From positions 399,431 through 463,430 of the forward strand of contig CAZRJR010000001.1 of assembly GCA_964600985.1 (NCBI GenBank): a DNA stretch of 64,000 bases, given 5' to 3'. Within the stretch, counting starts at the first letter, position 1. Every line of letters begins with the position of its first letter. This document shows, piece by piece, positions 13,123 through 18,512 of this stretch. The position numbers and the translations under genes were made by a program. This DNA comes from an uncultured Candidatus Saccharibacteria bacterium (lineage in GTDB: Bacteria; Patescibacteriota; Saccharimonadia; CAILAD01; JADZBC01). The notes beneath the pieces are model-generated. The model worked only from the letters and a program-made list of their open reading frames with translations. It had not been told where the DNA came from and made no database searches.

Positions 13123-14910
13123 TTAGCCGGCAACGATTTCGAACTGCTTGAGCTTGGCCTTAGTCAGCTTGCTCGGCGCGGCAGTCTGGAGCCGCAAGAG
13201 CTCAGCATAAATACCATCGCCCTTAGCAAGCTCAGCTGGCGTACCCATCTCAGCTATCTTGCCGCCTCGAATGCCAATTACCTTGTCCACATTGGCAATC
13301 GTACTCAATCGGTGAGCAATAATCATAGTAGTACGACCCTGCATAAGGCGCTCGAGTGCTAATTGGACCTCGCGCTCGGCTTTGCTATCGAGTGAACTTG
13401 TGGCTTCGTCGAGGATCAAGATCGGTGCGTCTTTGAGTATAGCGCGTGCTATGGCAATGCGTTGCTTTTGCCCACCCGAGAGTTTCACACCTCGCTCGCC
13501 AATTTGAGTATCGAAACCATTAGGCAACTTGCGAATAAAGCTTATGGCATTTGCAGCCTTAGCCGCCGCTTCCATCTGGCGCTGAGTAACCTTGCCGCTT
13601 CCGTAGGCGATGTTCTCGCCAATAGTCCCCGAAAACAGCGCTGGCTCCTGGAATACTACGGCAATATTTTTACGTAGACTTGCCTGTGTAACCTTGGTAA
13701 TATCGGTGCCATCGATCGCCACCTCGCCGCTAGTCAGCTCATAGAACCGCAACATGAGGTTAGCAATGGTGCTTTTACCCTCGCCACTTTCGCCTACCAA
13801 AGCCACCTTTTGCCCTGGGGTGATCGTAAAGTTAATGTCATTGAGCACCTGCTTGCCGCCCTGGTAGCCAAAGTTTACTCCTCGGTACTCAATCGCACCC
13901 TGGCGCACCTTGAGCGCCTTAGCATTCTCGCTGTCTCGTATGCTTGGTGCTAGGCCCATTACCTCGAAGTAGTCCTTACTGCCAGCCTTGGCTCGCTGCA
14001 AGGCGTCTACTATAAACGATGAGCCAAACAATGGCATTTGGGCCTGGTTGACCAGTTGCAAGAGCAGCGTAAATTCACCGAGCGTAATCGTCTTGGTGTA
14101 GGCTTGCCAGGTTATATAGCCATAAATGAGCGCGAATACAATGTTCAGGATAAATCGGCGCGCTACGTCGTACTTATGCCAAGTAACCGACTGGCCTTTA
14201 GTTTGCTTTTCTATACTACGACGCTTGTTGCGGAAGAACGCTGACTCCATAGCGTCGGTCACAAACGACTTGACCACACGGATTTGCGTTACTGACTCCA
14301 CAAATCGGCCGTTGGCTAAGTCAAGATCGCGATTTATACCCTCCTGTGACTTTTGCCAGTGTTTACTGGATCGCTGCGTAATATATATGTAGGTGGGGAA
14401 TATGGTGGCAAGTAGTAGGGCAACCGGCCAAGAGTAGTAGCTAATCAGAATTAAGGTAATAAACGTGGTCAAGAAAAACTGAGCAAAGTTATTGGCCATG
14501 GTCTTCATAAGCTCGCTAATTGTGGTAATAGTGCGCTCCAGCCGAGCCGTGATTTTACCCGTGATCTCGTTATCATAGTACTCGATTGGCAGCTGCATAA
14601 GGTGGTCATAGTAGCGCTGACTTAGGAGCGTATTGAGTTTAACCGACATCATATCACCCAAGTGGCCATTTACATTGCTCAGCAAGGTAACGACCACATC
14701 GCTGAGCAATATAAGTACAATGATTACGAGGAAGTAGCCAGCGCCATTGGTGCCGCCCTGGGAGTTAGCTACCAGGCCATCTACTATCATCTTGACCAAG
14801 AACGGAGATGCCAACGCCAACAGGCTGGTTACAATTACTAAGAAGGCAATAGCCACGTAGTAGCGCCAGAGTTTAGATGAATATTTTATGATTTTGGCAA
14901 TGTCGCGCAT
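13123..14910 (-). CDS. ABC exporter, fused permease-ATPase (MsbA/ABCB type)
   Basis: Six-TM domain followed by an NBD with Walker A GESGEGKST, the LSGGQKQR signature and Walker B ILILDEAT. First ATG at 14910 (MRDIAKII...). The ORF track start at 14943 is a TTG. Confidence 0.9.
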   Translation of the reverse strand: MRDIAKIIKYSSKLWRYYVAIAFLVIVTSLLALASPFLVKMIVDGLVANSQGGTNGAGYFLVIIVLILLSDVVVTLLSNVNGHLGDMMSVKLNTLLSQRYYDHLMQLPIEYYDNEITGKITARLERTITTISELMKTMANNFAQFFLTTFITLILISYYSWPVALLLATIFPTYIYITQRSSKHWQKSQEGINRDLDLANGRFVESVTQIRVVKSFVTDAMESAFFRNKRRSIEKQTKGQSVTWHKYDVARRFILNIVFALIYGYITWQAYTKTITLGEFTLLLQLVNQAQMPLFGSSFIVDALQRAKAGSKDYFEVMGLAPSIRDSENAKALKVRQGAIEYRGVNFGYQGGKQVLNDINFTITPGQKVALVGESGEGKSTIANLMLRFYELTSGEVAIDGTDITKVTQASLRKNIAVVFQEPALFSGTIGENIAYGSGKVTQRQMEAAAKAANAISFIRKLPNGFDTQIGERGVKLSGGQKQRIAIARAILKDAPILILDEATSSLDSKAEREVQLALERLMQGRTTMIIAHRLSTIANVDKVIGIRGGKIAEMGTPAELAKGDGIYAELLRLQTAAPSKLTKAKLKQFEIVAG

Positions 14911-14950
14911 ATTGTGCCAGTATAGCAGAGCCCAGCTGAGCAAAAAAGTG

Positions 14951-14978
14951 TTGACAAAGTGCTTACGGAGCGTAAAAT
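14951..14978 (+). promoter_or_regulatory. promoter copy A (TTGACA-N16-TAAAAT)
   Basis: TTGACAAAGTGCTTACGGAGCGTAAAAT. It is a near-identical direct repeat of promoter copy B at 15477-15505. Confidence 0.45.
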
Positions 14979-15143
14979 AGGATCAACTCAAAAGGCAAGC
15001 TTGATTGAGCAGACACGGAGTTCTTCACACAAGCCCGCTACCAAGCAGGATTAACAAGACGCCATCGACACTCAGGAAAGCGCACTTACGAGCCGCAGGG
15101 AGACCTGCAAACCGTACCCAAGAGAAGAGAAGAACACAACAAG

Positions 15144-15260
15144 ATGCAGATCACGAAGTTCAACCACTTCTACTTCGCCGGCACCGTCACGAGCGACACC
15201 AGCGCCGGCCTCCAGTTCATCTCGCCCATCGCCTCCGGCACCTGCGAGGACTGCGGCTAG
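15144..15260 (+). CDS. 38-aa micro-ORF with GC3 about 100%, unknown function
   Basis: ATG...TAG encodes MQITKFNHFYFAGTVTSDTSAGLQFISPIASGTCEDCG. All 37 codons after the start end in G or C, against about 50% genome GC. That is a coding signature of a high-GC donor. Confidence 0.35.
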   Translation: MQITKFNHFYFAGTVTSDTSAGLQFISPIASGTCEDCG

Positions 15261-15282
15261 CCGCCCCTCGCCTCGAGCTGCC

Positions 15283-15353
15283 GGCCCGGAGCAGGCCCCA
15301 CCATCGAGAGCGCCTTACAAGCGCTGATGGGAAAGGATGGCCTGCTCCGGGCC
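15283..15353 (+). other. extended GC-rich imperfect hairpin after the micro-ORF
   Basis: 15-bp perfect outer stem GGCCCGGAGCAGGCC / GGCCTGCTCCGGGCC. The loop encloses an inner stem-loop (CCATC gag AGCGC cttacaa GCGCT GATGG). Confidence 0.45.
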
Positions 15354-15400
15354 CCAGCCCAAGATTTTGCCCCGCCAGGCGCAACACCAAATCCGTTATC

Positions 15401-15431
15401 GAACCCGATAGCGGGTTCTTGATTTTTATAC
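15401..15431 (+). terminator. rho-independent terminator
   Basis: GAACCCG-ATAG-CGGGTTC followed by TTGATTTTTATAC. Confidence 0.55.
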
Positions 15432-15476
15432 AAAATTTTAGTCAAAAATTTGTAGGCAAAAAGTCCGCCAAAATGC

Positions 15477-15505
15477 TTGACAAAGTACTTACGGTATGCT
15501 AATAT
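15477..15505 (+). promoter_or_regulatory. promoter copy B of the rpf-like gene (TTGACA-N17-TAATAT)
   Basis: TTGACAAAGTACTTACGGTATGCTAATAT. The predicted leader to ATG 15684 is about 170 nt and contains the hairpin ACGACC-N18-GGTCGT-TTTT at 15537-15570. Confidence 0.5.
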
Positions 15506-15683
15506 TACTCCTGTTCATATAGTTTTTGAAGAAATCACGACCTGTAACCTCATATGTTAAGGTCGTTTTTGATTCTAAGCTATATGCGCGACCGCAAGGC
15601 CTCTACCCTACCGGGTACAGCGCCTAGCAGAGCATTAACCAGGAAAAGGACGTAGTTTTGGAGGGTATCTATACGTAGATACA

Positions 15684-16271
15684 ATGCAGAAACACATCCA
15701 ATTACTTGCCATAGCCGTGCTATTAGCAAGTCAGGTAGCCAAGCCAGTTGTACGAATTCCCGCTACCGCCACAGCCCAGGCTGCCAGCAAAGCTGTGAGT
15801 ACACCACAAACCACCTACAACCTTCAACTCAACGTTGCCTCTACCAAGGCCGTGGTGGTTGTAGCCGAGCAGCCCGACTTCGACCAAGAAGTTTTAGCCC
15901 CATTGCAAGCCGCTCAAGCTGCCAAGGCTAAAGCCGAGGCCGAAGTAGCCGCCCAAAAAGCTGCGCAAGCGCGAGTATACCTTGCTAGCGCGCCAGTCGA
16001 CAGCGTGTCTAACACCCACATAGGTGTTGCATCGGGCGACGTCTGGGAGCAGCTGCGTATCTGTGAAGCAGGTGGTGACTACACCCGCAACTCGGGTAAT
16101 GGTTACTACGGTGCCTACCAGTACAACCTCGGCACCTGGGCCAACTACGGTGGTTATGCCAGCCCGCACTTAGCTCCTCCTGCAGTGCAGGACGCCAAGG
16201 CGCGTGAAACGCAAGCCGCTCGTGGCTGGAGCCCATGGCCAGCCTGTGCACGCAAGCTCGGTTTACTTTAA
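15684..16271 (+). CDS. rpf: secreted resuscitation-promoting-factor (Rpf) type lytic transglycosylase
   Basis: Signal peptide, then an Ala/Gln-rich linker, then the Rpf domain WEQLRICEAGGDYTRNSGNGYYGAYQYNLGTWANYGGYASPHLAPPAVQDAKARETQAARGWSPWPACARKLGL. This matches the Micrococcus/Mycobacterium Rpf catalytic core, including the CE[AS]GG Glu. Confidence 0.85.
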   Translation: MQKHIQLLAIAVLLASQVAKPVVRIPATATAQAASKAVSTPQTTYNLQLNVASTKAVVVVAEQPDFDQEVLAPLQAAQAAKAKAEAEVAAQKAAQARVYLASAPVDSVSNTHIGVASGDVWEQLRICEAGGDYTRNSGNGYYGAYQYNLGTWANYGGYASPHLAPPAVQDAKARETQAARGWSPWPACARKLGLL

Positions 16272-16295
16272 GACCGTAGCTTAGCCAGCACGCAA

Positions 16296-16333
16296 ATACC
16301 CCTCTGGAGTAATCCGAGGGGTATTTGTTTTTG
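16296..16333 (+). terminator. rho-independent terminator of the rpf-like gene
   Basis: 9-bp stem ATACCCCTC / GAGGGGTAT with an 11-nt loop, followed by TTGTTTTTG. Confidence 0.65.
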
Positions 16334-16588
16334 CTTACTCTAGTTAGAATCTAATCGCACGAAATGCAAACATTGAAGCTTTCGGCATCGGCCGCCTGTA
16401 CACCGGCCAAAAAGTCGTCTTGCTCTACGGCATCTTTTTGACTCACGACTGGCTGCTCGGCCACCATAGTTGACTCACTAATACTATCTTTTTGCTGGTT
16501 CACCCTCCAACCCTCCTGTTGTTTGTTTATAATATAGCGCTTATGATATCCATCATACCACTATAGATAGCGGTTGCAAGGGGTTTTC

Positions 16589-18056: not shown

Positions 18057-18512
18057 TTATACCAATTCTGGCAGTTGTGTTATGTCCCCTTGCAAAAACA
18101 CAGGCCCAACTCCCATGATTTCATCAAGGAGAGGAGATTCTTGAGGCGCAGAGTTAAGGATAAATATGGGCTTTCTTAGATAAAAGGCAACTGTCATTTC
18201 CATGAGAACGTTACCGCCTATGTAGTCTGGGTTCCCATCTTTTTTATAGTTAGCCACGAGTATAGCATCGCTTCCTGCTATCAGCGTAAAGTGATCGCGC
18301 ATCAATTTTGCTTTATAAACATAGCCGTCACTACGAGCAGCCCAGTCAATCCTCGCCTCTTCATTTGCACGACCTTCTGCCTTCATGCTCTCGGCCATCG
18401 CTGGCAAAACTGCATGGAGCCCTATACTGAGCAATTCGTCACTCAGAGGAATGACGCGATCATAGGTACTCGCACTTGCACAGATAGCAATGATTGGTTG
18501 CTTCTTCCTCAT
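18057..18512 (-). CDS. nucleoside 2-deoxyribosyltransferase-like Rossmann protein
   Basis: 151 aa. The C-terminal motif DYIGGNVLMEMTVAFYLRKPIFIL resembles the NDT/DUF4406 D-x-G-T-x-F-E-x-G-x-A-x-x-x-x-K-P motif. Function is uncertain. Confidence 0.4.
   Translation of the reverse strand: MRKKQPIIAICASASTYDRVIPLSDELLSIGLHAVLPAMAESMKAEGRANEEARIDWAARSDGYVYKAKLMRDHFTLIAGSDAILVANYKKDGNPDYIGGNVLMEMTVAFYLRKPIFILNSAPQESPLLDEIMGVGPVFLQGDITQLPELV

Follow-up and report, generated by a model that had tools for sequence, protein, structure and literature searches.

A short-form Rpf-type transglycosylase gene of Saccharibacteria and its structured leader, a candidate cis-regulatory RNA

Known Rpf systems and the short-form protein

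PF06737, the catalytic domain of resuscitation-promoting factors (Rpf), is a signature family of Actinobacteria. The founding member, Rpf of Micrococcus luteus, is a small secreted protein with a catalytic Glu and a C-terminal LysM domain, and represents the sole muralytic 'growth factor' type. The gene described here encodes a 195-aa Rpf-type transglycosylase-like protein, called the short form below, and is located at 15684..16271 (+ strand) in a stretch of 64,000 nt from an uncultured Candidatus Saccharibacteria bacterium. The whole stretch is referred to as the window, and all positions follow its numbering. Rpf genes are known to be controlled at the RNA level through their 5' untranslated regions (5'UTRs), since the encoded enzymes could kill the very cell that makes them (PMC6009663; 10.1101/2024.07.19.603033; PMC10117811). 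The 5'UTR of Mycobacterium tuberculosis rpfB hosts an RNA switch or attenuator (PMC6009663), which has been proposed to sense B12 (10.1101/2024.07.19.603033), and a ydaO riboswitch, responding to cyclic di-AMP (c-di-AMP), is found upstream of actinobacterial rpfA (PMC10117811). Our literature search found no study of resuscitation-type Rpf proteins in Saccharibacteria. The term Rpf in papers on CPR (candidate phyla radiation) organisms denotes the unrelated Rpf proteins of quorum sensing by diffusible signal factor (DSF), and the transposon-sequencing (Tn-seq) paper on Southlakia mentions neither transglycosylase nor peptidoglycan. In a preprint, K21688 (Rpf) is listed among the functions enriched in oral Patescibacteria (10.1101/2025.03.10.642329). 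The analysis of the window makes it probable that the short-form gene encodes an exported muralytic enzyme of the Rpf type, vertically inherited in Saccharibacteria, and that it is kept behind a restraining leader.

The rpf open reading frame (ORF) begins at the first start codon following an in-frame stop. PF06737 was recognised at aa 117-188 (16032..16247, + strand) with a score of 66.4 bits, well over the Pfam gathering score of 27 bits (E 3.6e-18), and the match covers positions 3-77 of the 77 of the profile. A search of PDB sequences returned Rpf proteins only, RpfB chains first (E 2.5e-16), then RpfC and RpfE. An earlier note on this DNA had placed an Rpf-type catalytic domain near the C-terminus and had called for a scan with profile models; both the Pfam score and the matches to RpfB structures bear it out, and the motifs it quoted, RICEAGGDY and GWSPWPACARKLGLL, are present in the protein.

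The closest structures are those of the catalytic domain of M. tuberculosis RpfB (3EO5, 1XSF, 4KL7, 5E27) and of RpfC/RpfE (4OW1, 2N5Z, 4CGE). The alignment to RpfB spans the whole domain of 75-80 aa, and CEAGG, GNGYYG, W-x-x-WP-x-C and both cysteines are conserved; the window protein has D-Y for N-W after CEAGG, and LAPPxVQD for LATREEQ. Glu128 (16065-67) is aligned to the catalytic Glu of the RpfB CEAGG motif (Glu292 equivalent), and Cys127 (16062-64) and Cys188 (16245-47) to the two cysteines forming the RpfB disulfide. All three residues are invariant in the 30 homologues aligned for the calling of invariant columns. Judged from its sequence, the short form is a member of the PF06737 family with intact catalytic residues. 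In contrast to RpfB, it lacks DUF348 and G5 domains, as found by a Pfam scan, and has instead a family-specific module, modelled as a beta-hairpin plus one long helix. It shares with M. luteus Rpf the small size, the Rpf domain and the catalytic Glu, but not the LysM; no LysM, G5, DUF348 or wall-anchor motif was found in the protein.

A Sec signal peptide is predicted at aa 1-33 (15684..15782) by hydropathy and inspection. It includes a basic n-region MQKH, a hydrophobic core at aa 5-19, in which the hydrophobic stretch counts 14-15 residues, and a cleavage-like site A-Q-A/A near residue 33. The N-terminus can be aligned across the 30 homologues, and a helix is modelled by AlphaFold2 (AF2) at aa 2-18, at low confidence. 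The protein is thus probably exported via this predicted Sec signal; the earlier note had called it secreted, and its N-terminus does look like a Sec signal, as judged from hydropathy only. The following region, aa 34-112 (15783..16019), is the family-specific module. It has no Pfam match, but features the invariant residues F66, D67, P73 and Q78, followed by an Ala/Glu/Lys-rich stretch. In the AF2 model a pair of short strands is seen in the module, together with a long helix rich in Ala, Glu and Lys (aa 66-101, helix predicted local distance difference test, pLDDT, about 84-86). Used alone as a homology query, aa 34-112 gave zero matches, probably as a result of the word-index limit on low-complexity sequence.

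The mature protein, of about 16 kDa, would adopt a lysozyme-like fold and cleave the glycan strands of peptidoglycan via Glu128, and a Cys127-Cys188 disulfide would stabilise the catalytic domain. The gene is monocistronic, and has its own 3' terminator (16293..16335, + strand), an intrinsic one in which a perfect stem of 12 bp (16293-16304 / 16316-16327) is followed by a T-run.

Promoter and leader of the short-form gene

The gene is preceded by a near-consensus sigma-70-type promoter (15477..15505, + strand). The -35 hexamer TTGACA (15477-15482) and the -10 hexamer TAATAT (15500-15505) are separated by a 17-nt spacer, 10 of the 12 hexamer positions match, and the TG of an extended -10 is present at 15497-98. 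The transcription start site (TSS) is predicted at about 15512-15513; with the ATG at 15684, the leader would be about 172 nt long, close to the figure of about 170 nt given by the earlier note. Folding energies were compared with those of shuffled sequences, 200 shuffles being used where counts are given, and are reported as z-scores. The region 15510-15700 has a z of -5.4, and 0 of 200 shuffles fold as well. Leaders were compared in 27 short-form rpf loci from several clades; related loci and genomes used for comparison are indicated by L-numbers. In all 27 the -35 is a perfect TTGACA, the spacer counts 17 nt and the -10 is good; the leaders range in length from 79 to 178 nt.

Such leaders stand out in their genomic context. 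About 23 of the 56 long ORFs in the window look leaderless, as they have a -10-like TAnnnT box 4-12 nt before the start codon. Examples are the ORFs starting at 14910 (-), 18049 (-), 26783 (+), 35766 (+) and 53845 (-), and both neighbours of rpf are included. Shine-Dalgarno (SD) motifs are found in the window mainly at internal operon genes. The distribution suggests that a large share of the genes in the window's genome may be expressed as leaderless mRNAs, and makes the rpf leader an outlier. RpfB-like paralogues of other Saccharibacteria similarly have a short leader, or none.

The predicted transcript starts with P1 (15512..15590), a long imperfect hairpin identified by folding. P1 has a minimum free energy (MFE) of -26.5 kcal/mol and a z of -6.45, and 0 of 200 shuffles are as stable, values to be read, like those of its equivalents in other leaders, with the caveat that the boundaries of the hairpin were picked after folding. 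A 5'-terminal hairpin is found 0-5 nt from the predicted TSS in 27 of 27 leaders, with sequences unrelated between clades, and the equivalents of P1 have z of -3.7 to -6.5 in all the 20 leaders tested. P1 includes a terminator-like element (15537..15575), made of the inner GC-rich stem ACGACCU/AGGUCGU (15537-43 / 15560-66) followed by UUUUUGAUUC. Five U residues are found at 15566-15570 after the inner stem, and in the fold this U-run is base-paired to the 5' strand of P1, which is rich in A.

The earlier note had remarked that the hairpin and U-tract at 15537-15570 may attenuate the gene. Both are present, and attenuation at this site is possible. Taken to its full extent, the explanation makes the element an attenuator or a riboswitch platform, at which most transcripts stop after about 60 nt, rpf being expressed by regulated read-through. 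The GC-rich stem of 7+4 bp followed by U5 is indeed of the same style as the rpf 3' terminator, neither stem nor U-run varies among the closest relatives, and the 5'UTR attenuator of M. tuberculosis rpfB is a precedent (PMC6009663). A U-run of at least 4 residues follows the inner stem in 20 of 27 leaders, and in 5 of the 7 clades counted. It is absent, however, from the other 7 leaders, found in two clades (L006/L008/L012/L090 and L017/L087) which keep P1, and cannot be taken as a conserved feature. Moreover, the hairpin is only about 25 nt away from the 5' end, which leaves no room upstream for a sensor or an anti-terminator, no alternative pairing was found in the leader fold, and the U-run is itself paired inside the longer P1 hairpin. 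A simple terminator scan did not flag 15537-15570, and no riboswitch family was matched in Rfam. For these reasons regulated read-through is regarded as a doubtful explanation of rpf expression.

Stem-loops at the 5' end and SD-like sequences act as mRNA stabilisers, as in the E. coli ompA leader, the B. subtilis aprE leader and the B. thuringiensis cryIIIA STAB-SD. By analogy, the rpf leader may be likened to these: a hairpin is found within a few nt of the 5' end in an mRNA that is probably highly expressed and codes for a probably exported protein, and most clades have an AAGGAG-like box far from the AUG; the U-run is an addition of the window P1. A 5'-end-protecting role for P1 may tentatively be proposed, and a role of P1 as attenuator is rather unlikely.

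A further alternative is that promoter, 5' hairpin and terminator make up an independent gene, the 'leader' being a small RNA of about 60-75 nt, and that rpf is transcribed by incidental read-through or from an unrecognised internal promoter. A strong promoter is directly followed by a stable hairpin with a U-run, as expected for such a gene, and the same type of promoter drives the neighbouring non-coding transcript described below. Yet no -10-like box is found at leaderless or short-leader distance from the rpf ATG, P1 lacks the U-run in two clades, and conservation in the region is highest in a block within the 100 nt that separate P1 from the ATG. An independent small RNA gene is therefore improbable. 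A search for an internal leaderless promoter near the ATG was also negative. No upstream ORF is conserved in the leader: one reading TTG-GAG-GGT... is lost in L081, and the ATGs found in L006 and L019 are out of frame and non-conserved.

Between P1 and the conserved block the MFE fold includes P2 (15594..15629), a variable hairpin. Its stem changes with pairing kept, being CCCUU/AAGGG in L001, CCCUG/CAGGG in L081 and CUCGG/CCGAG in L083, and compensatory changes are found also in the P2 equivalent of clade B. P2 is an optional element of the leader design. The block itself (15628..15683) has the organization GCAGAGCATTAACCAGGAAAAGGACGTAGTTTTGGAGGGTATCTA-loop-TAGATACA, and includes a CAUUAAC..GGA box. 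Its 56 nt are identical, except for the hairpin loop, in the window, L001 and L002, where the proteins are about 80% identical; they are near-identical in L164, L165, L081 and L083, and partly kept in L167 (67% protein identity). In the window clade the block is almost invariant, only the 4-5-nt loop of the GUAUCUA/UAGAUAC hairpin varying, and the proteins differ by about 20-30%. A single-stranded box of the CAUUAA(A/C)C..GGAG type recurs in more distant clades, and occurs once only in the 64 kb. In L002, at about 2830-2925, the leader features an extra degenerate copy of the box, GAGAGCATTAAAAAAGAAAATGTAGTATTTTTTGATGGT, located beside a run of N; part of the leader may truly be duplicated there, or the copy may have arisen in scaffolding.

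The SD-like sequence GGAGGG (15660..15665) is 18-19 nt before the ATG, a spacing to be compared with the 4-10 nt of the other SD-led genes in the window; an AAGGAG-like box is far upstream of the AUG in most clades. Folding encloses the SD, the P3 hairpin (15665-15682, GUAUCUA/UAGAUAC) and the AUG in one helix (15648..15699), in which GGA.CG..GUUUU pairs with codons 3-6 (GAAAC.CA.UCC). The helix has a dG of -17.4 kcal/mol and a z of -4.71, and 0 of 200 shuffles are as stable. The equivalent helix has z of -3.6 in L165 and of -2.4 in L081. When fixed windows from -42 to +15 were folded in 19 other leaders, z was below 0 in 17 (median about -1.8), and in other clades the upstream purines often pair with codons 3-6.

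The leader would thus act after transcription start. RNA strongly transcribed from the near-consensus extended -10 promoter would run through the structured leader of about 172 nt; P1 would protect and stabilise the mRNA at its 5' end, and its terminator features may cause some premature termination in the window's genome. In the leader P1 is followed by the conserved purine-rich box, predicted single-stranded, and further on SD and AUG would be locked against codons 3-6, translation staying low until the helix is opened by a cue or a factor. Translation held by such a helix would limit the dose of a potentially self-lytic enzyme. The helix locking SD and AUG is more likely to be the control point than the U-tract hairpin.

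The leader is, on these grounds, a candidate new cis-regulatory RNA. Rfam covariance scans were run on the window region 14900-16400 at E <= 10, on the window and 18 related loci at gathering score, and on 10 loci at E <= 1, and neither ydaO (RF00379) nor any other credible Rfam family was detected in the rpf leader. A ydaO/c-di-AMP riboswitch is therefore rejected, in agreement with the earlier note, in which the ydaO consensus had been sought by eye and could not be confirmed. The rpf leaders of Actinobacteria are similarly long and structured 5'UTRs in which a terminator-like hairpin precedes an Rpf gene, and the logic, restraint of a self-lytic enzyme, would be the same. In the window, in contrast, the terminator-like hairpin comes first, and not after an aptamer, ydaO or other Rfam matches are missing, and no ligand is implied. 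A more ambitious proposal is that the leader is a Saccharibacteria-specific cis-regulatory RNA, which responds to a ligand or a factor through 5' hairpin/terminator, purine box and SD/AUG helix, and gates an abundantly transcribed secreted Rpf. The proposal is speculative, and we consider it unlikely as it stands. If true, control of the short form would resemble that exerted by riboswitches on rpfA and rpfB in Actinobacteria, the host phylum, and release of the enzyme could be coupled to contact with the host or to the condition of the wall. To our knowledge, almost nothing has been reported on RNA-based regulation in Patescibacteria, and the rpf leader provides a tractable entry point into the subject.

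Several observations weigh against the idea of an exported Rpf enzyme behind a restraining leader, or limit it. The NCBIfam models Rpf (NF046106) and RpfC (NF046107) are matched in the domain only, with scores of 61.9 against a cutoff of 180 and 52 against 200. Scores so far under the equivalog cutoffs indicate membership at the level of the domain family, not orthology to a named actinobacterial Rpf. Gln17, within the hydrophobic core of the signal, is invariant in the homologues, a hint that this end of the protein is perhaps not simply a signal to be discarded, but for example a membrane anchor. The AF2 model, obtained with the 30-sequence alignment, is poor overall (pLDDT 59, predicted template modelling score, pTM, 0.28). 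As for the RNA, when P1 was ranked by raw MFE among natural windows it was strong in most loci, but that of the window came only in the top 7% or so. The modest rank reflects the AU-rich composition, and composition-controlled z-scores were preferred. P3 is no better than shuffles when folded as an independent element (z -1.24), and was kept only within the larger helix. The clade-A SD/AUG helix is built of invariant columns, so that covariation is no test of it, and codons 2-6 could owe their high conservation to constraint on the protein only. Alignment by MAFFT followed by RNAalifold gave no consensus leader structure across clades, because a sequence-driven alignment breaks the hairpins.

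Distribution, descent and role of the short form

The first protein search returned 621 matches. The best 120 are mostly proteins of 165-235 aa, matched nearly end to end with 47-81% identity; few of these 120 are named, and the named entries are Saccharibacteria or Parcubacteria 'transglycosylase family protein'. The protein itself is thus ordinary, of a kind that public annotation already names in its relatives, and the leader is the part that was not studied before. In a scan including one genome per species, the full-length relatives (45-82% identity) were confined to Saccharibacteria, Saccharimonadia and 'Patescibacteria' metagenome-assembled genomes (MAGs), the best match among representative genomes having 82% identity. 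Outside Saccharibacteria the nearest matches, limited to the catalytic domain, are found with 57-63% identity in Acidimicrobiia, Mycobacteriales, Frankia and other Actinomycetota. With upper E-value limits of 1e-3, 1e-10 and 1e-30, an exhaustive profile search retrieved 7592, 2424 and 33 cluster representatives, respectively, and the set of 33 is essentially the full-length short family.

Saccharibacteria host at least three Rpf architectures, the short form, an RpfB-type form (two to three DUF348, G5, PF06737) and a LysM-PF06737 form. The RpfB-type form was found in oral Nanosynbacter, TM7i and others, and DUF348 and G5 domains are present in L033, L080, L022 and L027. Among the genomes recovered in the scan, those of cultivated oral epibionts had the RpfB-like form and not the short one, which came from environmental Saccharimonadia. 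RpfB-like and LysM paralogues (Nanosynbacter L033/L043, TM7i L080, L023 and L065) have a predicted export signal and a catalytic domain 58-73% identical to that of the window protein; they differ from it in architecture, and their genes have short or no leaders, without P1, box or SD. The presence in Saccharibacteria of three architectures known from Actinobacteria fits an old link with the phylum hosting the cultivated members. An Rpf gene grouping in the domain tree with the Saccharibacterial long-form (RpfB-type) genes was noted also in L049 (JANWKZ010000067.1), a contig of 5.3 kb binned as Bacteroidia, which is probably a mis-binned Saccharibacterial contig.

The short-form gene is found in its relatives in a common gene order, ABC exporter (-), rpf (+), small ORF (-), RelA/SpoT (-), BipA (-). 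Its GC content at third codon positions (GC3) is 0.55, and that of the neighbours 0.53-0.59. Mean identity in the catalytic domain is 0.77 among short forms, 0.62 between short and long forms, and 0.56 between short forms and Actinomycetota. The phylogeny called for by the earlier note was built by neighbour joining (NJ) on 72 columns of the catalytic domain with 500 bootstraps, and left the deep branching unresolved, as the short form came out strictly monophyletic in 26 of 500 replicates, and the Saccharibacterial sequences taken together in 0 of 500. With such a tree, the catalytic domain does not allow the direction of any ancient transfer to be decided.

The distribution data bear directly on the origin of the gene. 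A recent horizontal gain by the window organism of an actinobacterial rpf, possibly together with the GC-rich island found upstream of the gene, might be suspected, as PF06737 is an actinobacterial signature, the nearest outside domains (57-63%) are those of Acidimicrobiia, Mycobacteriales and Frankia, and the adjoining island holds a 38-codon ORF with a GC3 of 1.00. But full-length orthologues 45-82% identical are found, with the same neighbours, in many Saccharibacteria, GC3 of rpf (0.55) equals that of the flanking genes, and the Saccharibacterial forms are nearer to each other than to those of Actinomycetota. In addition, the island is limited to the closest clade, while rpf and its leader are far more widespread. 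A recent gain is already largely refuted, and we regard it as highly improbable; on sequence evidence, recent transfer from Actinobacteria is effectively excluded. The short form is rather, as its sequence and genomic setting indicate, vertically inherited within Saccharibacteria, in a conserved housekeeping neighbourhood. An old genetic link to Actinobacteria, through ancient transfer from the host phylum, is plausible. The actinobacterial affinity pointed out in the earlier note holds for the catalytic domain and the RpfB-architecture paralogues, but not for the gene as an isolated acquisition, since full-length members of the family came only from Saccharibacteria and related MAGs. The note had set against this affinity a placement in a CPR-specific clade devoid of it; the short forms do make up a Saccharibacteria-specific group, yet the affinity is there, as seen in the 57-63% identity of the domains.

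As to the role of the enzyme, controlled cutting of peptidoglycan at the epibiont's own surface, in growth or division, would be the primary one. A self-directed role is favoured by the conserved core neighbourhood, by the wide occurrence in environmental lineages, and by the presence of paralogues, as in Actinobacteria. Action on the adjoining host wall is possible, and the two roles are not exclusive. A perspective article notes the proposal that patescibacterial lytic transglycosylases breach or compromise host envelopes (PMC11665869). The short form might accordingly be thought of as a host-directed effector, which opens the host wall at the attachment site for nutrients, or releases muropeptides which wake dormant hosts. 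Cultivated Saccharibacteria grow on Actinobacteria, and the enzyme family is the one used by Actinobacteria for resuscitation (PMC6009663). The N-terminus of secretion type, found together with the lack of a wall-anchoring domain, and the very strong promoter, suggestive of an abundant product, point in the same direction. On the other hand, the gene is located among housekeeping genes and is conserved across environmental Saccharimonadia, the hosts of which are not known, the cultivated oral epibionts recovered carry the RpfB-like form only, and wall-bearing bacteria need hydrolases of this sort for their own growth. A function primarily directed to the host is thus possible, but not the one we would favour over action on the epibiont's own wall. 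The earlier note had thought of host peptidoglycan being remodelled and of host dormancy being manipulated, and both ideas are purely speculative.

With a perfect promoter and a conserved structured leader of 80-180 nt, the short-form gene appears built for strong but restrained expression. Among the surface or secreted enzymes of these epibionts, its product is thus a good candidate for a major one. The locus also offers defined constructs for asking whether an epibiont Rpf acts on the host wall.

The upstream island and neighbouring small reading frames

The sequence TTGACA-N15-19-TANNNT is matched only twice in the 64 kb, at 15477, in the rpf promoter, and at 14951. The two matches share their first 18 nt, TTGACAAAGTRCTTACGG. 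The twin promoter, TTGACAAAGTGCTTACGGAGCGTAAAAT (14951..14978, + strand), drives a GC-rich transcript of about 440 nt, which ends at a terminator located at 15390-15425 (+). The island thus delimited (14951-15425, + strand) lies between the ABC gene and rpf, and has a folding z of -6.15. Its core is a long hairpin (15279-15365), GGCCCGGAGCAGG...CCUGCUCCGGGCC, which is kept in L001 and L081-L083, where the alignment suggests compensatory changes. Both promoters are likewise found in L001 and L081-L083, with the intervening sequence in L081 and L083, and distant clades lacking the island keep the rpf promoter and leader. As island and promoters are common to the closest relatives, the arrangement is ancestral to the clade, and no recent insertion damaged the rpf promoter. 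The earlier note had described the promoter region as disrupted or duplicated by the island; the two promoters do share sequence, but nothing is disrupted.

Local resemblances to RNase P, the signal recognition particle (SRP) RNA, 6S RNA or tmRNA drew attention in the island, and these identities were rejected, as neither Rfam nor ARAGORN supports them; no Rfam family, tRNA or tmRNA was matched by the island RNA. The island is a candidate novel structured RNA, confined, as far as its sequence is found, to the closest clade of the window.

The 38-codon ORF hosted by the island (15144-15260, + strand), MQITKFNHFYFAGTVTSDTSAGLQFISPIASGTCEDCG*, has all codons ending in G or C, hence the GC3 of 1.00, to be compared with the value of about 0.55 of neighbouring genes. 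Divergent counterparts of similar length were found in L001 (about 67-180), L164 (355-471) and L002 (about 2250-2390), and most end with C-x-x-C-G; L081 and L083 do not have the ORF. A gene for a small Cys-peptide, derived from a high-GC (host-like?) source, could be at hand, or else a side effect of RNA structure.

On the other side of rpf, and convergent with it, a conserved ORF for an acidic peptide of 50 aa (16354-16503, - strand) is located downstream of RelA/SpoT; Pfam gave no match for it. The N-terminus is variable, and the C-terminus, DDFLAGVQAADAESFNVCISCD, is invariant in the window, L164, L081, L082 and L083. After the 38-codon ORF, this is a second case of a small peptide encoded next to rpf with CxxC at its end.

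An ORF of 151 aa, similarly devoid of Pfam matches, is found at 18057-18512 (- strand) between RelA/SpoT and BipA. These two genes are adjacent in L081, L082 and L083, so that the ORF looks like a lineage-specific insertion. In the clades lacking the island (L006-L015), a sequence recurring some 150-250 nt upstream of rpf is CTGTCAAGCATAAG. Read as its reverse complement, CTTATGCTTGACAG, it resembles a promoter of the same TTGACA..GCTTAT type, which would be divergent from that of rpf and drive the ABC gene.

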